From Lophium mytilinum (taxonomy: Eukaryota): DNA of 64,000 nucleotides. Of the stretch, positions 16,204 through 62,358 are shown in pieces. Under the pieces are notes generated by a model, which was not told the origin of the DNA, made no database searches, and saw only the letters and a program-made list of their open reading frames with translations. Both the position numbers and the translations under genes were made by a program. The stretch spans positions 310,001 through 374,000 of the forward strand of contig MU004197.1 in NCBI GenBank assembly GCA_010093605.1, given 5' to 3'. The stretch's first letter is position 1, and each line of letters begins with the position of its first letter.

Positions 16204-18270
16204 TCACTTCGACTATGATTGTGAGATGGAGAGGTGAGTGTGGTACGGACGATGGAGACAAGACGAAAGCTGTAGGTCCTATACGTGCTTGGTGCGAGAA
16301 TGCGAGAACGTCACGGGCAGTTGCGACGGTGCTGCGGTGTCTTGAGCGATGGGTGCTTAGAATGGGCGGTCCTTGTTTGCGAAAATGTGAATTGAAGAAA
16401 CTGCGAATTGATACAATACTTTCGTGATGTCGCTGCTGAGTCCAGATGAGTGAGGATGATACAAGGATAGCAACGCAACTTGGGTCTTCCGAGCCCTTCA
16501 ACATGTCTCCGACCTTCATGCCGCGACAGGACGCTGAGTGCGGCAGGTTAGGAGTATACAGACGTCGTGGTGGGGCGTACTGATTGGTAGCTGTGCTATG
16601 CTATCGCCGTAGAAGTAGTCTCACGACATCAACGTGGGTGATAGTATGGAGGATTGAAAGAGAGTTTACAAGGCTAGCAGATAAGCTAGGATATACAGAG
16701 ATGTAACTGAGGATTGGATCGCACTCCCGCTAGTAGTGCTCGAGCTCCTTTGGAGATATCCTGCTGGATGAGTGCACTGGATTACGCTCACGCTCACGCT
16801 CCTGATTCTCGAGATTCTGCGCACGACGCCTGCATGTACACTGTTAGGTGAGTGCACACCCACGCCAAATCGTCCGAGGATCAGGATTGAGAGTAAACGT
16901 TAACTAGTGCATGCCGATAGAGCATCTCATCAACCACAACCGAGGCGGAGCCAAGTACGATACTTGGTCACCTACGTTCTATGCCAATGTTGCCTAGAAC
17001 AAGCAACTAAACACCAGGCCTCTACAAAGTAGTTGGCCAGCGCGCGGAGGATAAGCAAAACACCATAGGGTCCGGTTCCTTCCTTCCCCGCACCGTGTCG
17101 CAGCCGTTGTGGAGTCTGACATGCATCTCCACCGCGCACCTGACACTCGCGGTAGCAAGTAAGAAAGCGGTTACAAGGCTGACGCCTCCGACTCTAGGGC
17201 TGGGCAGCCAGTCAACGCGCCGGGAGCCGGAGTGCTCATCGTCGAAGCGGGTGATTCGCTCCGGCGCGGGCCGTTGGCTGCCTGGGGGCGGTTTTGGGAG
17301 CCGTTGAAAGGATTCCCGCTATCGCAGCTAAGCAGGTTTTTGGGCGCGGGTGGGATTCTTGGAGGTGTCGAACGGGTTTTTGCTGCGGTTATCGAAGGGT
17401 GTTAGTAGTGGGGAGGAGCCAGTGGAGAGGGGCGAAGTTGTATACGCCGGAGTCGGCGCTGTAGTGAAGTGCAAGATAGGAAGGGAGCGGCGGTGTTTAG
17501 GTGTGTTAGTAAGGACAGAACGCGTAGACCGTCTATCAATAATGTATCAGACGATGAAATTGTGGAGAGTTGCAGATGGAGGTGATATATAGCAGGGGCT
17601 TGATTGAGGGTCCAGATGCGTCGCATGGTATGGCCTCGTTTGGGCAAAGATATGGACAGAATGTAGAGGTACTTCCCGACTCAGCCAGCACTGTGCGAGG
17701 CTGTCGTGTCTTTTGCGGTACCGGATTCCCGTAGTGGTGTGCAAACCTGTGGCCTCATCACGGCTAGGGCTGCTCGCATATGCCATGCTGCCCGTCGCGA
17801 GGGTGTGCTGCCCGGTAGCGTCGCCAGGGGGTGTGAAGTCCGGACGAGTGGGCTACAGGCACCCTGCGAGCTGGCATTGAAGCCGAGAGACTCGATTGGG
17901 ATGCATTACAGCGCTTCTGAAACCTCCGAAGCACTGGCTGTCCAGGAGGGTAAGTTTCAGCGCCGAGAAGCACGCTGCGGCACCAGTCCACGCGATGCGG
18001 GAGTGGGGTGCAAGGCGTGAGGTGGGCTGGTTTAGGTGGACTGGTGCGAGAGACTGGCGGCCAGCGTGCGTTGCAGGCGCTGTACGTGTCGTGCTCGAAG
18101 TGGTTGTGCTGCGTGTCGGCTGGGCAACGAGAGCACGAGTCGGGAAGAAGAGCGATGACGACAAGACTGTTGGACGAGATGACGGGAGAGGAGCAGCACC
18201 ATGGTGAGAGTGTGGGAGACAAAAGAAACGGCGGCAGTGTGCGGAGGAAGCATCGTGATCGCGGCGTGGG

Positions 18271-24550: not shown

Positions 24551-25896
24551 ATGTCCGACTACGAGGATGAGATGGACGTTGACGCGCCCGCCATCGACGC
24601 CCCAGTCAAGTTCACCTCAGACAATACCAACTCGAAAGGGAAGAGAAGCGCTGCAAATCTACCAGTAGAAGCTGAAGACTCATTGCCATGGTACTTGTTC
24701 CTATCTCTACGTCGATGCTCTGGCTAATTGGCTTTTAGGGTAGAGAAATACAGACCAAATACTCTAGACGATGTGGAGGGCCACCAAGACATTCTGGCAA
24801 CCATCAACAAGTTTGTAGATACAAATGTGCGTCCGAAGGACTTTCTGTTTCGACAGTAGAAACAATTGCTAACAGGCCTCAGCGACTGCCTCATCTTTTA
24901 CTGTACGGACCCCCAGGAACGGGGAAGACATCGACAGTTCTCGCTCTCGCACGACGGATATACGGGACCAAGAACATGAGGCAGATGGTCTTGGAGCTGA
25001 ATGCTTCCGATGACAGAGGTATCGATGTTGTCCGGTACTGGCCATTCTACCACTACCCTTTGGGGATCCGGCTAATTGTTCATAGAGAACAAATCAAGAC
25101 CTTCAGCAGCACGAAACAAATCTTCTCCGCGGCACCCCAACCAGGTGACCATGTAACGCTTGCCACCTTCAAACTCATCATCCTCGACGAAGCGGACGCA
25201 ATGACATCTACCGCACAGATGGCTCTACGAAGGATCATGGAAAAATACACCGCAAACACCCGCTTTTGCATCATCGCAAACTATACCCACAAGCTCTCGC
25301 CCGCACTACTTTCCCGGTGTACACGATTCCGATTCTCTCCTCTCAAGGAACCTGACATCCGGCGGCTAGTGGACAAAGTCATAATCGAGGAGAACGTAAA
25401 CATCACACAGGATGCTACCGAATCTTTGGTCACATTGAGCAAAGGTGATATGCGGCGAGCTCTCAACGTTCTCCAAGCATGCCACGCTTCAAGCACCCCA
25501 TTACAGATCCCGGGCAAACCAGCGCCAGATCCCAAGACCATTGTCCGGGATCAGATCACGCAAACTACAATATACGAGTGTATTGCTGCACCTCACCCAG
25601 AAGATATCTACCGGATAATGGAGTTGCTCTTAACAACATCGGATGTCACGCAGTGTGTCAAGACAATCGGTTCGCTGAAAGCGGCAAAGGGTTTGGCATT
25701 AGCGGACATTCTAGCCGCGCTAGGAGAGGAGTTGGTCAAACGGGACGTTCCGACGCAAACCATGGTGATGTGGATGGAAGGACTTGCGGAAATCGAGTAC
25801 CGGCTGAGTGGTGGTGGAAGTGAGGCTATCCAGACGGGGGCAGCGATCGGGGTGGTGCGAACGGGTGTTGAATTGATGGCGAAAGGAAGAAAATGA
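24551..25896 (+). CDS. RFC3: Replication factor C small subunit (yeast Rfc3 type), 3 introns
   Basis: LPW|VEKYRP; LPHLLLYGPPGTGKTS; LELNASDDRGIDVV; LIILDEADAMT; LLSRCTRFRF. Confidence 0.93.
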
Positions 25897-26185
25897 AGGT
25901 TTGAAGCTTCTCAGGTGAACTTCAGCGTATGATATCCACGGATCTTTCATGGCGTCATGATTCGGTATCTCATTATGAGAGGTTCAATCAACCAAACTAA
26001 TATACATCTTACGTTATGAAGCTTTGCTGATGACGAGCTGAAGAGTATCCTAGGTGGACACTGCAACGTTTTCTTATTTCACGACGGCCCAAAAGATGGA
26101 TACTACTAACGGTCCGCTTGCAAGATACGATGTTCACTGCTCCTAAAACACTCAAGAAAATAAGTAAATACTACAGGTGCATCAC

Positions 26186-26306
26186 GTCCGGCACCAAGGA
26201 TCGAACTTGGGTCTTGTCAGGCGGGTCAACTTCTATCCACCTTATAGGTGGACCCGAAAAAATCCTCAAAACCTAACACCATGCTAACCAACTACACCAC
26301 ACCGGG
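26186..26306 (-). ncRNA. tRNA-like element copy 1 (121 nt; non-canonical anticodon arm)
   Basis: Minus strand CCCGGTG-TG-GTGTAGTTGGTTAGCAT...CCTGACA-AGAC-CCAAGTTCGATCCTTGG-TGCCGGA-C; A and B boxes; internal T6 run. Confidence 0.75.
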
Positions 26307-26481
26307 TTAGAGACCACGGTGGTATTGACAGGCTTATGTGCCCATGGCCAGATTTTGGGGGGGGGAGTACGTTCTTATCCTATTGTCGCGTAAACTGACT
26401 TTCCTTTTCTCACAGAATGTTAGCTAGCACAGCAATGCTTTGATGAACATGCAGAATGGCAAAAGAATAAGACTCGTGAAA

Positions 26482-26574
26482 GTCCGGCGCCAAGGATCGA
26501 ACTTGGGTCTTGTCAGGCGGATCCTGCAACAGGCTCCTATCCTGACATATTATAACCGACTAAACCACACCGGA
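26482..26574 (-). ncRNA. tRNA-like element copy 2 (93 nt; complete cloverleaf frame, no U33 anticodon loop)
   Basis: TCCGGTG/CGCCGGA acceptor, D arm, TGTCAGG/CCTGACA stem, AGAC variable loop, CCAAG-TTCGATC-CTTGG T arm. Confidence 0.8.
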
Positions 26575-26704
26575 TTAGACTTGCTGCTGAAAGACGAACC
26601 TCTTAAGCACATGACGATATGACAAGCGTTCGTTCACAGCCTTCATGATATACTATCAACGCTTTAGTCGAGGCCTCATGTGGCAGAAACTAGGGGTCGA
26701 AACA

Positions 26705-26798
26705 GTCCGGCGCCAAGGATCGAACTTGGGTCCTGTAGGCGGATGTGGTGGTCATCCGTAGGGACATATCTCATGCTAGCTAACTACACCACACCGGA
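26705..26798 (-). ncRNA. tRNA-like element copy 3 (94 nt)
   Basis: Acceptor and T arm identical to copy 2; internal hairpin CGGATG/CATCCG in place of the anticodon arm. Confidence 0.75.
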
Positions 26799-27268
26799 TT
26801 GGAGAGAGAGAGAAAAGATAACAGACTTGTATTCCCATAGGTATGGTTTCTGTGCTTAGTCGTTTCTTTAGTGTCCAAAACCTGCTATACGATATCTCTT
26901 CTAGTAGCCCCTAGTGGCGATTTGTTTCCGGGAGCGTGGTGAAAGTGGTTCGGTTCCAACAATAGTTTGTCCGAAGTCGTGTGCCTGAGTGCTTAGTTTG
27001 AACAGAATGGCAAGTGATCACCCCATTCAAACACAGTGGTATTCTTTCAAATCACCACAACTATCCTAGTATAGATATAAGTAAGTATCAAGCGGCTTTT
27101 CTTTCGCAATTCAATTAAACTATGTTTCCCTCGTAGATCTTGCTCTTGTGATTTTCTACATAAGCAGCCAGCCTTCCAGACCTGCAAGTATTGCCACAAC
27201 TGCTGAGGGGTTCCTGGTTTCCTCTTATTTCCAAAGGTCGTCCATTAGCTCAAGATTAAGATATTGAG

Positions 27269-29762: not shown

Positions 29763-30818
29763 TCACTCTCCGCAAGCTCGCTTCACCTGCTCTCGAAAGG
29801 ACCCGCACTGTTGATTCGGGCTATGAAATAGTCCAGCTGCTGCAGCGGTGGCCACCCACTTCGCCCACTTCAAACGACTTTCCACAAGGTCAGGGTCGAG
29901 GCCACGGAACTCGAGATCGAAGTACTTCATACTCTCTATGGAGCAGACTAGATCAGTGGCGATCTGTCTCGGAAGTAGCATGGGACTATTGTCGCTGGCG
30001 GTTTTGAAGAGCTGTTTCCGATAAAGGCGCTCCAGGTCATCGAGGAGATCATCACGCCGCTGGAGCACCGCGTCTGGTGCGGCTTCATGGAGTCTGGCGA
30101 TTTCGTCGTCCCTGCAATGAAGAACGCATTGGGTGTCGGAAAGTGTTAGCTGTCCTAACAAAATCGTTTGGAGGTCCTCGACATCAGGATAGGTTGTGCC
30201 ATCGTCATCCGCGACGGCATCATCGGTGGCACTGGAGTGAACTGTTCTTTTCGGAGTAGATGTCTCAGCATCCCCCATGGTGAAGTCTGTTTTGTCCATG
30301 TCCATGCGAGATGCATCCGCGCTTGTGGCCTGGGATTCCTCGGTCACCGAGCTTGAGTTCCGAGCTTGGAATAGGGTGATACTAGTGTCATCTTCATCCG
30401 CTACCTGAGAACCAAGGAATCAGCTTTCTTTTCACCCTCGAGCAACTCAGAGGTACTTACTGTGGTATCATCCACTCCTTGAACGGTATCGTCGACGTCC
30501 TGTGATGGAGTAATGTCACGAAACCCGGCGAAGTCGCGTGCTCGGGGTTCTCGAGAAGGTTGTATCTGTCCCAACATCTGAAACGATCATCAAGTTAGGA
30601 TTGGCTTTGATGAGACTCGGAAATACCCGCTTGCTCACCTGAAGAGTCCCATAGTTCGGAGCCTTGAGCAATTGATCACTGGCACTGCTAATCCAGCTGG
30701 TTGAAGTCTTCCCTGCAGAATTGCTAGACGTTCCGGTAGTAGCATCGATCGGCTTGTCCTCAGCTTCCTTGGCCTTTCGAGACTTCTCTGGCGAGCGGCG
30801 AAGATTGTATGGAGGCAT
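29763..30818 (-). CDS. Orphan family paralogue C (spliced)
   Basis: N-exon MPPYNLRRSPEKSRKAKEA; last exon CVLHC..EIARL..LERLY..DLEFRGLD..WAKW..AAAGLFH.P..QCGSFREQV. Confidence 0.8.
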
Positions 30819-30996
30819 GGTAGAATAAGCTTTGGTATATTGATGAGGCTTCGAGGTGTTATAGATTAAGAATGGGCTTGAATGTCGTTGGCGGTTAGTG
30901 AAGTAGGTGGGATGTAGACTCGAGGAAGTTACAGGGCTGTTTATATGGCAATCGATACAAACCAGAAAGGTGAATATAATATCTGCCCCCAGAAAA

Positions 30997-33900
30997 GGGG
31001 AGGGATAAGCGCACACCCCCTAATTCCTCCACGCACGCCCCCTAATTCCTCCACGCACACCCCCCTATTGTCTAATTATTTTACCACCTTCTAATTAGCT
31101 TGGATTACTGCTCCGGAGCCTCTAAGTGGCTCGCTTAGCTTACGTATAGTTTCTAAATGCCCACTCTATATACAGCGTAGCTATAAATAACTATATTCTT
31201 ATTCTATACCTCTATAATATACTTACTATAAACCTCCTACCGCCGCTATAGTAGTTCTATAACTTCTTAAAGAAAGCTAAGCATGCGCTTATAGAGCACG
31301 TAAAGGCGCATGGCTATAGCTTAGTAAAAACCTACTTAAAGAAGGATAAGAAGGGCCTAGAAGTAAAGAAAGTATAGTTTAAATACTACTTTAGAGGTAT
31401 AATAGAGCCTATAAACTATATATATAGTACCTCTACTAATAGAGTAGACTATAAGATAAATAGTATACTTACTTAGTAGCCTTCTAGCTTTAATAGTAAA
31501 TATATATAGCTATAGAAGATAATAAAGGCCTTTTATAATAACTATTCTACTCTACTTAAATTAATAGTAGTTGCATGTAATAGGAAGCGCTTAGTATTAA
31601 TAAACTAGCTTATTTAAGCTAATGTATTAAGCGGAATAAGGCCTATAGAGACGCACGTAAAGCTGCTTAAGAAGGGGGTAACTATTACTCTAATAGATAT
31701 TAGAAACGAGCGTATATAGTAGCGGAAGAAGCTTCTTAATAGCCTTACACCTATCTAGGCGCTCCTTAATATATTAGAAACCTCTATATTTCTAGCATCT
31801 AATAGCTATAATAGAAAGTATATATATAACTTTATAAAGGATAAGTAGAACTAGATTAAATACCTCTTCTTTATACACCTAGATTCTATTAAAATTCTCT
31901 AATTAAACTATAATATTATACTATTAGATTGCACCTATAAGACTAATAGATTTAGTATACCCTTTCTCTATATTACGGGCGTTACCTATATAAGTAATAA
32001 CTTTAAAATTAGTTACTATTTCCTTCTAAAAGAAAAGAAGATAAACTATAACTAGGTAGTATAGTAGCTCTTTAAGCTCTTTAAGTGCTATTCTATTATA
32101 CTATATATTTTTCTAATAGATAAAGAATAAGCTCTAAGAAACGCACTATATAAGTAATAGCCGAGAGTTCCGCGCCTTCTCTATATATAGTATATTAAAA
32201 AGAACATTATTACTAAGCTAGCTAAGGTATATAAGAAGGAACCTAAGTATACTATAGGTAGCGCGCTGCCTGCGCCTACGCCTATATTAGATAAAGAGAA
32301 GAAAGCTATTAAAAAGAAGAAATAAGAGAAAAGGGGCGCCTTTATTACCCGTTAGATAGCTATAATAAAGCTAGAAGTCCTAGCTTAATTTAAAGAGGCT
32401 TAGAATAAGCTACTTAATAACTATAAGAAGCGCCCTAATCTAGTAAAGTATATAGAGGATAAGTAGTAGCTATATAGATAGAATTAGGCTAGCTACTATA
32501 CTTATATAGCGCGGCACTTTAGTACTATATAAGTAATTTTTCTTAATACTAAGATATCTAAATTTAATGCCTAAACTTTACACGGGGTCTATATACATGC
32601 TAAATAAGTAGTACTAAAGAGAATAAAAGTATAGCTTAAAGAATAACTAAGAAATAAAGAAGTAGTAGAGGTATATAATACTAATTTAATTTCTTATAGT
32701 ATTATATTATAGAATAAGGGCGCGCACGGCTAGCTTAAGGGCTTTCTCTAGGTATTAACTAGCTATCTATTTAATATTCTCCTTAATATATAGAACCTTA
32801 TTCTTACTACTAAAGTAAAGTATAAGAACCTTAAGGTAGTATAGCACGCCCGAACTTATTATAAGGTTAATAAAAAGGAGTTCCGTAATCTTATTAAAAA
32901 GGTAACGCTGTAGACACTTATTTACCTTAAGAAGTAAATTAAAAAGGCGAAATTAAATAAATATAACCCGCGTAACTATACCTAGACTTTTACTTCTATC
33001 TATAGTATACTATGCGCTTATACTCTTTATAATTATCTATACTAAGCGGCTACTACTCTTTCTTCTTTAGATCTAGTGCTCTATATATAACTAGAAGAGA
33101 TAAATTACTATTAGTAGTTTATTTAGCCTAGAGTATATTAGCTAGCTATTTCTTTTAGCCCCTTTAATAAGGTACTTAATCCTGCTATTATTAAGTATTA
33201 TTAGGGCCGCCCTGCTATTATAAGAAGAGGTTATTATATATATAATAATACCTAGAGAGATCTATTAAGATTTAAGATTACTATAGGTATAGGTGCGGTA
33301 GCTAGACCTATAGGTATACCTATAGGACGCACGCTAACAGTTCTACTATTAAAACCGCCTAATTCTATAGCCCCCCGTCTACCTTCTATTACTTAGAGTG
33401 CTTCTTAGTTAGCTGCTATACTAGCTATTATAGATTTTAATAATTTACTTACTAATCTACCTAAGTTTAAGTATATAGTAATATATAGGCCCTTTTCTAT
33501 ACCCGCACCTATTACTATACCTATCGCCGCACCTATTACTATATTTAAGAAGCGTAGCCGGCCTCTTAGTTTAAAGAATAAAGTACTAAGGAAGAAGAGA
33601 GTAGTTATAGATTACTAGAATAGTGCTTATCCTAAGCCTTAGCTAGCTCCTTAGCCTTAGCTAGCTCCTTAGCCTTAAGCAGCGCTAGCGCTGCTTTCTA
33701 TTAAGAAGCTTTAATATTAAATAGCATTATATAATTAGTATATAGAGGGGTTAATAGATTAGAATAGCTAGGGAGGCGCGGCGGCAATATAGGGGGGCTA
33801 GGTTTAATGCGGAGAGGCTGTAATAAGGTAAGAATTTAACTATTTTAGTATACTTATAGGTATATAGGTATATAGATAGTAATATAATAGCCTATATATA

Positions 33901-34218
33901 CTATAGGAAATAGAAAGTATATATAGTAAAATAGGTATACTATATAGCCTTACTATAAGTACGGCCTTACGCACGGCCTATATATATAGCCTTATCTATA
34001 GCCTTATCTATAGCCTTACGCGCAGCTAAATATAGGCTGTTAGAAACGGTAAGAATGCACGATAAAATGGGAAGGCTGTGCAGCCTTACTATTTTAAGCG
34101 CCGGAGCAGTGATCCGAGCCCTCCGGGCTAATTAGAAGATTAGATGATAGGGGGGTGTGCGTGGAGGAATTAGGGGGCGTGCGTGGAGGAATTAGGGGGT
34201 GTGCGCTTATCCCTCCCC
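30997..34218 (+). mobile_element. Mutator (MULE) DNA transposon, full length, inactivated by RIP
   Basis: TIRs GGGGAGGGATAAGCGCAC... (about 72 bp perfect, imperfect further in); 8-9 bp TSD (c)ccagaaaa at both ends; residual transposase motif LLDCTYKTNRF..P at ~31921-31986; TpA-rich, stop-riddled interior. Confidence 0.93.
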
Positions 34219-45356: not shown

Positions 45357-47717
45357 CTAACTTTGTATTCTTGAAAGATAGCGCAGGTTCAAGTACCTAC
45401 CTAGCTCAAGATCATCCACTTGCCACTTTTTCAGCCACAGGAGCGAGATCTGTGTGTCGAGATGTTGAGGGCCAAGATGCTTTTCCCTTAGCTCGAGGCA
45501 TTTCTTCATCAGTGAGACAGCATCTTTGTCTCGGCTCTGCGACTTCCACGTACACGCCAGGTTGTTCATGCTAATTAGCGTCTCTCTATGCTCCGCCCCA
45601 AGTACTCTTGTCCTTATTTCCAATACCTTCTCCTCTAGCTCTTCGGCCTCCTGCAACCTCCCTTGTTTGCTGTACGTTGACCCCAAATTACCCATGCTAA
45701 TTAGCGTCTCTGGATGCTCCGCCCCAAGTACTCTTGTCTTTGATTCCAACACTTTCTCCTCTAGCTCTTCGGCCTCCTGTAACCTCCCTTGTCTATAATA
45801 CGTTAACCCCAAATTACCTATGCCAGTTAGCGTCTCTCGATGCTCCAGGCCAAGTACTCTTGTCCTTATTTCTAATGCTTTCTTGTCTAGCTCTTCGGCT
45901 TTCTGCAACCTCCCTTGCTCTTTATAGGTTAACGCCAGATTAGTCATGCTTATTAGCGTCTCTGGATGCTCAGGCCCAAGTACTCTTAAGCGCATTTCCA
46001 ATACTTTCGAGTCCAGCTCTTCGGCCTCCTGTAACCTCCCTTGTTTCTGAAGTACTGTCGCCAGCTGACTCATGCTAACCAGCGTGTCACGATGCTCGTC
46101 TCCCAGTATAGCCTTTCTAGACTTTAAAGTTCGGCGGTGCAACTTCTCAGCCCGAGCGTACATTCCTTGCTTGGACAGAACTTCGGCCAGGAGACTGAAG
46201 GCACTAAGTGTGCCGCCTCCATCGTCCCCATCTTGAACTCGGCGACCTTCGATCAATCTGAGAATTACGTCCTCGGCAGACTTATATCTTCCTTGTTGTA
46301 ATAGTACATTGCCTAATTTGAATAGGATTCCTAATGTCATCGAGTCCCTTGCCCCATACATGGTCTCGGCCAAGGATAGTTCTTCTCGCAGTTGCTCTTC
46401 CTCCATTTGTTGGTATCGCTCTTGTACAGCTTCTCGCGGTTGCGAATTCCCATGGAGCTGAGGATCCGCCGACGTGAGTTGGCCTTGGGATACGGGTAAA
46501 GGCGTGGAACCAGGGCGGAAGCCTGGAAGAGATCGATAGGCGATAGCCGGACTTTGGCCAGCGAAAGTGCTGTCTTGCGGCTGAACTATGCTTGAGATTG
46601 AGAGGGTGGGGGATAGGATCGGAGGAGTATGTGCGACAGGCGTACTACCGGCCGGTGAAAAGTATGGAATTACTGCCGAGTACGCAGGGCTTGCAAGCGG
46701 AGAAGCCCGTTCGGAAATAGTTCGATGGCTGGCGGCCGGACTTTGCCCAGCGAAAATGATACCCTGAGGCCGAACCATTCTCGAGGTTGAAACGGTAGGA
46801 GAAGGAAATGGAGGATGTCGTGCGACAGGCGTACTGTTGGGTGGTGATAAGTATGGAGTTCCTGCTGAGTACGCAGGGCTTGCAGACGGAGAACCGCGTT
46901 CGGAGACTGTTCGACAACCCACATCGGATGGTGTAGCTTCGGCATGTCAGTATCATATGTAAATAACACAGATTGACCATCGACTTACGCGCAGCGGGGC
47001 TAAAGACGTACGGGGAGCTTTCGGAAATATCATGCCTTTTCATCCATCTATCGATTTTGTGCGGCTCCACTTCGCTGCCTCTTACTTCAAAGATAAGCTC
47101 GCGTTTTTCGGTTTCGATGAACTTCCTTTTCTGTCGCTTTCTCACTATGGCTTCCATCTCCTTTGTCTTCACGTTCTTGTCCTTCTTCCACTGACTTATT
47201 CGTGTTCTGTATTGTCGCAGCCTTCCAGATGTAAGCTTAGTGCACGAATATACCAGAGATCCCATACCCTCAACCTGGAAGGAAGAACTTACTCAGCGTT
47301 AAATCCAAACTCGTACTCAATCCTCTTCTTCACTTCCGGGAGCGGCAGTTTCAGCGTAATATGGAGCTCTAGAACTCGCGCTTTGTATGGCTCCCAATCA
47401 TCAGCACGCAACGTCGGCGCTTTTCTCTTTCGGGGGTTGGCTGGCGGAGCCATGGACGTTCTGGGCATGGCTGGTGTATTGTCAACCAAGTCAGCGCTTT
47501 GAGAAGCATGGATGGGAAACGCTGTAGAGGGATGAATCAACTGGGGCACGCTTCTTTGACCAGTCGTTGCGTATCCAGTTGTCGGTAGCATCTGTGAGGC
47601 CATGTTATGGGGCACTATGAGACTCCCGTAGCGCCCATATGTTTGCTGTGAGACTAGGGGACCTGGTATGGGATCGAGCCCGCCTAAAATCGGCGGATTG
47701 GGTGTCCAGGGATTCAT
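45357..47717 (-). CDS. Clr5-domain protein with C-terminal kinesin-light-chain-type TPR repeats (at least 2 introns)
   Basis: DWEPYKARVLELH...FGFNAE|LRQYRTRISQWKKDKN (Clr5-like); 42-aa repeats LG.EHPETLISM.NL..TY..QGRLQEAEEL. Confidence 0.85.
45480..46330 (-). repeat. 126-bp TPR-encoding tandem repeats
   Basis: ttagcgtctct and aacctcccttg recur at 126-bp intervals (~45575, 45701, 45827, 45953). Confidence 0.9.
46535..46915 (-). repeat. 189-bp (63-aa) intragenic tandem duplication
   Basis: TVSERGSPSASPAYSA...FAGQSPA and TISERASPLASPAYSA...FAGQSPA. Confidence 0.9.
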
Positions 47718-56222: not shown

Positions 56223-58099
56223 ATGCAGCGAACACTGGCATCGAGAGCGCGGACTTCGGTTCTATCTTCGAGCTCGAAGCTACGCACATCCAGTTTCAAC
56301 CTCCAACAGCAGCGGTTTGCGCACAAGGTATGTTACTCTATGAATATCAATACCTTACATAGCTCTGAGTCCCATCTAACAATCTCTACAGGAGCTTAAG
56401 TTTGGTGTCGAGGGCCGGGCAGCTTTACTGAATGGCATCGAGACTCTCGCAAAGGCCGTTGCCACAACACTAGGTCCCAAGGGCCGGAATGTGCTAATCG
56501 AGTCTCCTTATGGCTCACCGAAAATCACAAAGGGTATGTGAGGGCAAAAGTCTAGAATTGTTGGACCACGCTGACAAACAAATAGATGGTGTCACCGTCG
56601 CGAAAGCCATCACCCTCAAGGACAAGTTCGAGAACCTGGGTGCTCGTTTGATCCAGGACGTTGCTTCCAAGACCAACGAGGTCGCTGGTGATGGAACTAC
56701 TACCGCCACTGTCCTCGCCCGTGCCATTTTCTCCGAGACCGTCAAGAACGTCGCCGCTGGATGCAACCCCATGGATCTGCGGAGAGGAACCCAGGCTGCC
56801 GTTCAGGCTGTGGTGGAATACCTACAAGCGCATAAGAAGGACATCACTACCAGCGAGGAGATTTCCCAGGTTGCCACTATCTCTGCCAACGGCGACACCC
56901 ACATTGGCAAGCTGCTGTCGAATGCGATGGAGAAGGTCGGCAAGGAGGGTGTTATCACCGTGAAAGAGGGAAAGACGACCGAGGATGAGCTCGAGGTTAC
57001 CGAGGGCATGAAATTCGACCGTGGATTCATCTCGCCCTACTTCATCACCGATACCAAGACTGCAAAGGTGGAATTCGAGAAGCCCCTGATCCTTCTGTCG
57101 GAGAAGAAGATCTCGGCTGTGCAAGACATCGTCCCTGCTCTCGAGGCTTCCCAGCAGCTCCGCCGACCCCTCGTCATTATTGCCGAGGACATCGACGGCG
57201 AGGCTCTTGCCGTCTGCATTCTCAACAAGCTCCGTGGCCAGCTTCAGGTCGCTGCCATCAAGGCCCCCGGCTTCGGTGACAATCGCAAGTCTATCCTCGG
57301 TGACCTCGGCGTTCTCACCAACGCTACCGTCTTTACTGATGAGCTTGACCTCAAGCTCGAGAAGGCTACTGTCGACCATCTTGGATCCACTGGCTCGATC
57401 ACCATCACGAAGGAGGACACCGTCATTCTCAATGGTGAGGGTAGCAAGGATGCTGTTGTTCAGCGCTGCGAGCAGATCCGCGGTGTGATGGCTGATCCTA
57501 CCACCTCCGAGTACGAGAAGGAAAAGCTCCAGGAGCGTCTTGCCAAGCTCTCTGGTGGAGTTGCGGTTATCAAGGTTGGTGGCGCCTCCGAAGTCGAGGT
57601 TGGTGAGAAGAAGGATCGGATTGTCGATGCTCTCAACGCCACCCGCGCTGCCGTCGAGGAGGGTATCCTCCCCGGTGGTGGAACCGCTCTCCTCAAGGCC
57701 GCTGCCAATGCGCTCAAGGACCTCAAGCCCGCCAACTTCGACCAGCAACTCGGTGTGAGCATCATTAAGAACGCCATCACCCGTCCCGCACGAATGATCG
57801 TTGAAAACGCTGGTGCTGAGGGAGCCGTCATTGTTGGCAAGCTTATGGACGAGTTCGGTGCCGACTTCAACAAGGGCTTCGACAGCGCCAAGGGTGAATA
57901 CGTTGACATGATTTCTGCCGGTATCCTTGACCCCTTCAAGGTCGTCCGCACTGCCCTCACCGACGCTAGCGGTGTTGCGTCCCTACTAGGAACGACTGAA
58001 GTAGCCATCGTAGAAGCACCAGAAGAGAAGGGCCCGCCACCAGGAATGGGTGGTGGAGGTATGGGCGGCATGGGTGGCATGGGCGGAGGCATGTTCTAG
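56223..58099 (+). CDS. HSP60: Mitochondrial chaperonin Hsp60 (2 introns)
   Basis: Presequence [41 protein letters not shown] tail. Confidence 0.98.
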
Positions 58100-61965: not shown

Positions 61966-62358
61966 CAGGCATCTTTCTGCCATCTGTCTTCTCTGTCTTC
62001 GCCATCGTTCTCTTTGGCATCATTCGACCTCAACGCCAACCTTACTCGTCCACACCGAAACATGCTGGCACTGAATGGATAAGGTGAGAACCCTCCCGAC
62101 ATGTTGGGCGTAGACTTGCAGCTGGTTGCAGCGTTTCCCATATGGTCCCTGTGGCTTCGGCTGCAGTAGTGGCGGAGCTACGGCAATGATGCTGCAAGGG
62201 TTTCGCGAGGGGTTCGATTCCTTGAGGGGCCGCTGCATTGACACTAGGGGGGGTCGGGTTAGAGGTTCTTCGGATCCACCACACCGCATCTCCTCAGCTT
62301 AGGCACACAGCTGACGAAGTGGAAAACGGGCATGAGCATGCTTCTAGGAATCGGTCGT

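Follow-up and report, generated by a model that had tools for sequence, protein, structure and literature searches.

The window, which is the whole stretch of 64,000 nucleotides that was analysed, shows a cluster of three co-oriented tRNA-shaped elements on the minus strand, contained within 613 bp (26186-26798). The cluster is located in a 1.2-kb spacer flanked by two ORFs on the opposite strand. Long ORFs of the window match WAPL, replication factor C (RFC), cyclophilin, TPR_10/TPR_12 and a Cpn60-type chaperonin, and the RFC ORF lies near the cluster. The three elements, named copies 1 to 3, and the two ORFs needed to place them are distributed as follows:

24976-25896, plus strand: ORF directly upstream of the cluster encoding a replication factor C small subunit
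26186..26306, minus strand: copy 1, a tRNA-shaped gene of 121 nt, with 23.4 bits on the Rfam tRNA model and an ARAGORN call, Gln(ttg), obtained with -ps only
26482..26574, minus strand: copy 2, 93 nt, the best preserved and with a canonical core, with 40.4 bits on the Rfam tRNA model and an ARAGORN call of Pro(agg)
26705..26798, minus strand: copy 3, 94 nt, with acceptor and T arm intact and no match to the Rfam tRNA model
56510-58099, plus strand: ORF encoding a mitochondrial-type HSP60 chaperonin, with up to 92% identity to proteins of Dothideomycetes and lichen-forming ascomycetes

Judging by its sequence, the window is eukaryotic and probably belongs to a Dothideomycetes-like ascomycete. 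Nothing closer than 92% to the HSP60 ORF was found in the protein collection searched, so the host lineage seems to be poorly sampled. Repeats of the TPR_10/TPR_12 types make up nearly the whole ORF located at 45357-46922 on the minus strand; such repeats are characteristic of NLR-like proteins in fungi. About 4 kb from the cluster there is an AT-rich block (30001-34000) with a GC content of 0.32-0.42, a TpA/ApT ratio of 1.3-1.85 and a (CpA+TpG)/(ApC+GpT) ratio of 0.21-0.85; judged by these values, the block is a degraded repeat bearing the signature of repeat-induced point mutation (RIP).

The T arm, CCAAGTTCGATCCTTGG (17 nt), is identical in the three copies (26194-26210, 26490-26506 and 26713-26729), with 0.02 matches expected by chance and an observed count reached by none of 100 shuffles, and contains in each of them a match to the B-box consensus, GTTCGATCC. 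It belongs to a 28-nt 3' block, which runs from within the variable loop through the T arm to the 3' acceptor strand and the discriminator, and is present in the three copies with 0-1 mismatch (0.00 expected). At the other end, the 5' strand CCGGTGTGGTNTAGT, which includes the 5' acceptor strand and the start of the D arm, is also exact in the three copies (0.36 expected). Pairwise comparison of the copies shows identity at 20-23 of 26 positions in the 5' block and at 27-28 of 29 positions in the 3' block, and no alignment among the three copies is possible for the middle parts located between both blocks.

Over the three copies, the 7-bp acceptor stem is paired in 20 of 21 cells: copies 2 and 3 show TCCGGTG/CGCCGGA, and copy 1 has C1 opposite A72, which is the only exception, plus a G7-U66 pair. 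Read in the register of a 7-bp anticodon helix, the variable loop has 4 nt, AGAC, or GGAC in copy 3. The D arms of copies 1 and 2 contain A14 and G18-G19, and in copy 3 an A replaces G18. As for the parent isotype, the body may resemble Glu/Asp-type tRNAs, by its U1-A72 pair and 4-nt variable loop, and the D arm may resemble Gln-type tRNAs; none of the readings below relies on this likeness. Copies 1 and 2 share a 7-bp helix, TGTYAGG/CCTGACA, and differ in it by a single change from C-G to U-G; in copy 3 this helix is broken, with three of the seven pairs unpaired. In copy 1, the D stem is separated from this helix by 2 nt and 49 nt lie between the helix strands; in copy 2 the helix is TGTCAGG/CCTGACA, and the inner hairpin has 23 nt. 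A cloverleaf drawn with this 7-bp anticodon helix pairs in 92.6% of its cells, versus 32-46% when the partners are slid by 1-3 columns. The whole-element fold of copy 2 has a z of -3.16. With respect to mononucleotide shuffles, the middle parts show z values of -3.1 in copy 1 and -4.1 in copy 2, and that of copy 3 (z -1.6) does not clearly fold better than they do. One D-stem pair is G-C in copies 1 and 3 and U-A in copy 2, with pairing kept; this double change hints at selection on RNA folding, and with 153 of 500 shuffles doing as well, the covariation among three sequences lacks significance. The variable parts, compared with the window, give only chance matches of 8-15 nt and therefore show no evident target or source sequence.

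This anatomy agrees with the original prediction, made from the letters of the DNA, in most of its elements: a co-oriented triplet with a conserved body (T arm exact in the three copies, acceptor strands and D arms near-identical), an acceptor TCCGGTG/CGCCGGA with a C1 mismatch in copy 1, a 4-nt variable loop, a private hairpin in each copy together with a shared CCGCCT(G)ACA, and a GG at positions 32/33 of copy 2 which extends the helix to 7 bp. The A in place of G18 in copy 3 and the T4 and T6 runs within copy 1, described below, had been overlooked.

The searches with tRNA models and the scan for intron excisions support the view that none of the three copies is an ordinary decoding tRNA. 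A default gathering scan of the whole window with Rfam shows no match for any copy. Under less strict filters, copy 2 obtains 40.4 bits with RF00005, whose gathering cut-off is 29 bits, and contains a 27-nt insert replacing the 7-nt anticodon loop; copy 1 stays under the cut-off with 23.4 bits (141-nt scan), and copy 3 gives no Rfam tRNA match at E up to 10 (114-nt scan). ARAGORN, run with default settings, reports copy 2 alone, as Pro(agg), by means of a forced long variable arm. At the relaxed threshold (-ps), copy 1 appears as Gln(ttg) with a 43-nt intron, and at the 80% threshold there is only a poor Gly(ccc) call for copy 3. No high-scoring canonical call with a normal intron was obtained, which is one of the two findings that would have spoken against the original prediction.

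For the excision scan, every excision between the D stem and the T stem was enumerated, and a solution was accepted if its connector had 1 nt, its stem 5 perfect bp, its loop 7 nt with U33 and a purine at position 37, and its variable loop 4-5 nt. This exhaustive scan gave a canonical anticodon arm after a single excision in none of the three copies. Copy 1 offers the valid-looking loops ttg and ttt, and copy 2 the loop agg, all of them dependent on a connector of 3-4 nt; for ttg and agg the variable loop must in addition have 6 nt, which is equivalent to a 7-bp anticodon stem. When the 3-4-nt connector is allowed, a 5-nt variable loop is obtained in copy 1 alone and a 6-nt one otherwise, and copy 3 has no solution. 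The archaeal bulge-helix-bulge motif (3-nt bulge, 4-bp helix, 3-nt bulge) was not found by eye in the minimum-energy folds, in which copy 2 has a 3-by-1 internal loop and copy 1 has irregular loops. The proposal that the copies are not ordinary tRNAs is thus upheld by the absence of excision solutions and by Rfam, whose cut-off is passed only by copy 2, and with its 27-nt insert. Two other sites of the window, a T-arm-like palindrome with 2 mismatches (16951-16967) and an exact B-box consensus (62211-62221), were considered as further tRNA-like sites and rejected, since their surroundings are not tRNA-shaped.

A scan for T runs on the tRNA strand shows three features which bear on the transcription units:

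26257..26262, minus strand: T6 run inside copy 1
26268-26271, minus strand: T4 run inside copy 1
26461..26464, minus strand: first T4 run downstream of copies 3 and 2, a possible shared terminator

Between copies 3 and 2, the scan of this strand shows no run of four or more T residues, as had been stated, and the first T4 (26464-26461) is located 18 nt beyond the end of copy 2. Pol III terminates in general at T runs, and the T6 of copy 1 is likely a premature Pol III stop. Copies 1 and 3 fail to form an uninterrupted unit up to a downstream T run, with the proviso that the T-run length required by the host may differ.

Similarity among the copies ends at the discriminator base, no tail is present, and no flanking direct repeats (target-site duplications) were found around the copies. 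Local alignment of the 130-nt flanks stays at chance level in all six comparisons. Comparison in register shows a pair of upstream blocks:

26326..26347, minus strand: upstream block of copy 1 (-41 to -20), in register with the copy 3 block
26819..26840, minus strand: upstream block of copy 3 (-42 to -21), matching the copy 1 block

These blocks are identical at 16 of 22 positions, a value reached by 3 of 5000 shuffles. Identity in register is 13 of 22 positions both upstream of copies 1 and 2 (reached by 165 of 5000 shuffles) and downstream of copies 2 and 3 (315 of 5000), and the three remaining in-register comparisons are at chance level. The earlier statement that the flanks are unrelated does not fully hold, given the upstream block of copies 1 and 3 and the fainter traces in the two pairs with 13 of 22 positions. 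A (CT)n microsatellite (26799-26816), immediately upstream of copy 3, and a C8/G8 homopolymer (around 26353-26362), about 50 nt upstream of copy 1, fall where the upstream flanks of the copies have diverged. In-register homology that extends at least 40 nt upstream argues for duplication of DNA and not for retro-copying of a transcript, and near-random flanks with one surviving block point to an old DNA duplication with a conserved core. Since the core is 77-97% identical amid almost randomised flanks, it does not seem to drift freely. Its alikeness would reflect either constraint or conversion (concerted evolution) among the members of the family, and the conservation of the body relative to the flanks appears to fit constraint and concerted evolution of relics equally well.

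The family outside the window was judged from the contigs of two DNA runs, which are possibly the source of the assembly. The 31-mers of the 3' half show a depth of 360-410, versus about 133-160 in the adjoining DNA, depth not being equal to copy number. Contigs with other flanks enter the identical 3' half and then continue with other middle parts. At least two further members can be read from loose contig ends, each with its own hairpin-forming middle part. One of them has T4 and T5 runs after it, and both are also contained in contigs of 2.6 and 8.2 kb from a presumed-RNA run. The raised 31-mer depth and the joining contigs indicate a few further members, each with its own middle part, which suggests a family of a handful of members and not of hundreds; no sign of hundreds of tailed copies was found. 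The presumed-RNA run has coverage at the end of the RFC-like gene and over the repeated 3' half but none over the cluster itself, so nothing follows from it on the expression of the cluster. In the region 25800-26020 of the RFC ORF, its contig agrees with the window without differences and stops at 26020, about 165 nt short of copy 1.

In public collections, exact-pattern scans with the 3' half (T arm and acceptor) gave no match in metagenome contigs, prokaryote genomes and viral contigs, and scans with the 5' half gave none in metagenome contigs; these blanks, which carry limited weight because the scans had no known fungal tRNA as positive control, fit a lineage-specific family and not a widely conserved tRNA. 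A literature string search with pieces of both halves returned unrelated primer matches only. A retroelement primed by the RNA of these elements was also considered, and the idea was rejected, the sole matches to such a primer-binding site being the three genes themselves.

The reading that best explains these data, to which about an even chance is given, is that the cluster contains three old tandem paralogues, duplicated at the DNA level, of a small lineage-specific family of non-decoding tRNA relics in a filamentous ascomycete. The relics are possibly still bound by Pol III/TFIIIC. The observations behind this reading are the anatomy of the copies, the failure of the canonical model and the conservation of the body relative to the flanks. 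Each copy keeps a class I tRNA core: the acceptor has 7 bp, the D and T arms contain the A box and the B box, respectively, and the variable loop has 4 nt. From the way in which type 2 Pol III genes and pre-tRNAs work, the internal A and B boxes and the closed acceptor stem lead to the expectation of recognition by TFIIIC/Pol III and of trimming by RNase P/Z, and a full-length transcript would be trimmed by RNase P and RNase Z in the fashion of a pre-tRNA. In copies 1 and 2 the anticodon helix has 7 bp and continues into an irregular hairpin that diverges between them, and in copy 3 it is broken; because these anticodon arms are non-decoding, the copies are regarded as non-decoding tRNA relics. 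Their core may be kept by constraint on Pol III/TFIIIC recognition and on folding, or by concerted evolution with other members. Copy 2 would be the likeliest source of a stable tRNA-shaped RNA, transcription of copy 1 would mostly end at its internal T6, and transcription of copy 3, which seems the most decayed, would read through into copy 2. We infer transcription and processing, as well as the absence of a specific RNA function. That all three copies are working RNA genes is made less likely by the T6 within copy 1 and by the defects seen in copy 3. Against the relic reading stand the folds of the middle parts in copies 1 and 2, which are clearly better than those of shuffles, and the core, whose identity of about 77-97% amid almost randomised flanks exceeds what neutral decay would leave and could reflect a real RNA function.

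Such a function is central to a rather unlikely alternative, a functional family of non-decoding Pol III RNAs in which the body is the promoter, scaffold and RNase P/Z handle, and the hairpin is carried as cargo, such as a precursor of small RNAs or an arm that binds a protein; this is the main idea of the original prediction. It would account for a core conserved between near-random flanks, for the 7-bp helix common to copies 1 and 2 with its single C-G to U-G change, for the stability of the extended arms of these two copies (z -3.1 and -4.1), for the further genomic members which also combine the same 3' half with different middle parts, and for the compensatory D-stem pair. However, the D-stem covariation is not significant, a T6 lies midway in the supposed cargo of copy 1, and copy 3 shows a hairpin with a z of -1.6, a broken helix and the loss of G18; in addition, the variable parts have no match of at least 15 nt elsewhere in the window. 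That the copies encode lineage-specific Pol III tRNA-like RNAs, whose selectively maintained core displays a hypervariable hairpin as a small-RNA precursor or protein decoy, is judged unlikely.

A role at the level of DNA, with the cluster as a group of TFIIIC/Pol III sites (tDNA boundary or ETC-like) which insulates the RFC-like gene from the next gene and with the RNA being irrelevant, is quite doubtful. TFIIIB binds upstream of the gene, and the only piece of flank still common to copies, at -41 to -20, is located at its predicted position. The B-box region is the best conserved and identical in the three copies, and the cluster sits in a 1.2-kb spacer with the two ORFs on the other strand. 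In yeast, sites bound by TFIIIC alone and tDNA relics with weak transcription have both been described (PMC5356446). Nevertheless, both strands of the acceptor and the 3' side of the D stem, which are outside the A and B boxes, are conserved and still pair, and a purely DNA-level role does not require this pairing.

Genuine decoding tRNAs with fast-evolving introns, originated by duplication and anticodon shift (Gln-UUG or Lys-UUU for copy 1 and Pro-AGG for copy 2), are very unlikely, even if anticodon shifts among eukaryotic tRNA paralogues are documented (PMC3923123, in part). Such tRNAs are favoured by the ARAGORN calls, in which copy 2 is Pro(agg) and copy 1 is Gln(ttg) with an intron of 43 nt, by the score of copy 2 above the Rfam cut-off, and by a register shifted by 2 bp, which gives copies 1 and 2 loops of 7 nt with U33 and a purine at 37. 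However, the shifted register demands a 3-4-nt connector and a 6-nt variable loop, or a 7-bp anticodon stem, and none of the three copies has a canonical solution, copy 3 having no solution of any kind. Furthermore, proline tRNAs typically carry G37, and the agg loop of copy 2 shows A37; copy 1 contains an internal T6 and the C1-A72 mismatch, and two or three amino-acid identities would depend on one common acceptor stem and discriminator. A tRNA-derived SINE or another retro-copied Pol III transcript, or young unconstrained neutral pseudogenes, are highly improbable: the source genome contigs contain the 3' half in multiple copies and a RIP-like degraded repeat is located 4 kb away, but similarity stops at the discriminator base with no tail, homology reaches -41, past any Pol III transcript, the depths suggest a few copies and not hundreds, and a core of 77-97% identity versus near-random flanks does not fit young neutral copies.

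For annotation, the copies are best labelled as pseudo or undetermined tRNAs and should not enter the counts of Pro or Gln genes. If they are relics, a RIP-active fungus would have kept a near-perfect tRNA core long after the loss of the decoding arm. If the core is under selection, they would be a natural tRNA-shaped carrier family with variable arms, the counterpart of engineered tRNA scaffolds; in the literature searched, no such family was found described for fungi.

Among known systems, mascRNA, which derives from MALAT1, is a tRNA-like RNA released by RNase P and RNase Z, and engineered tRNA scaffolds carry inserts. The copies share with both a cloverleaf body and a non-decoding anticodon arm, processing being only expected here, and they differ in their internal A and B boxes, since those systems are embedded in Pol II transcripts or engineered. 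AfuSINE2 of Aspergillus fumigatus is a tRNA-related SINE of a filamentous fungus (PMC5063351) and, like the present family, a tRNA-derived repeated element of an ascomycete genome. In contrast to AfuSINE2, as presented in the part of that report used here, the copies show no tRNA-unrelated body, tail or target-site duplication, and the contig depth gives a low copy signal. Eukaryotic genomes commonly contain tRNA genes and pseudogenes clustered within 1 kb, mostly parallel to one another, and such clusters have a fast lineage-specific turnover (PMC2888827); three co-oriented tDNAs of a lineage-specific family within 613 bp correspond to this type of cluster. A conserved core with replaced anticodon arms is not described in the part of that survey used here, in whose main text a word search shows neither 'fungi' nor 'Ascomycota' (PMC2888827). 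Anticodon-shifted or remoulded tRNA paralogues also show one body with the difference around the anticodon; those shifts, in the portion of PMC3923123 considered, are point changes in a canonical arm, whereas here a segment of 20-47 nt differs and the arm is non-canonical in the three copies. The closest likeness is to ZOD1, derived from a tRNA-Ile gene, and the YGR033C locus, derived from a tDNA-Arg, two budding-yeast relics on which the Pol III machinery is still present and whose transcription is weak (PMC5356446). As in these loci, the copies are tRNA-derived, have lost the decoder, keep the promoter boxes and lie between Pol II genes. The yeast relics, as they appear in the part of that study drawn on, are single and strongly decayed (PMC5356446), whereas the family found here, known from sequence alone, contains at least five members with an almost perfect core and a distinct extended arm in each, and represents a modestly unusual variant of tRNA relics.
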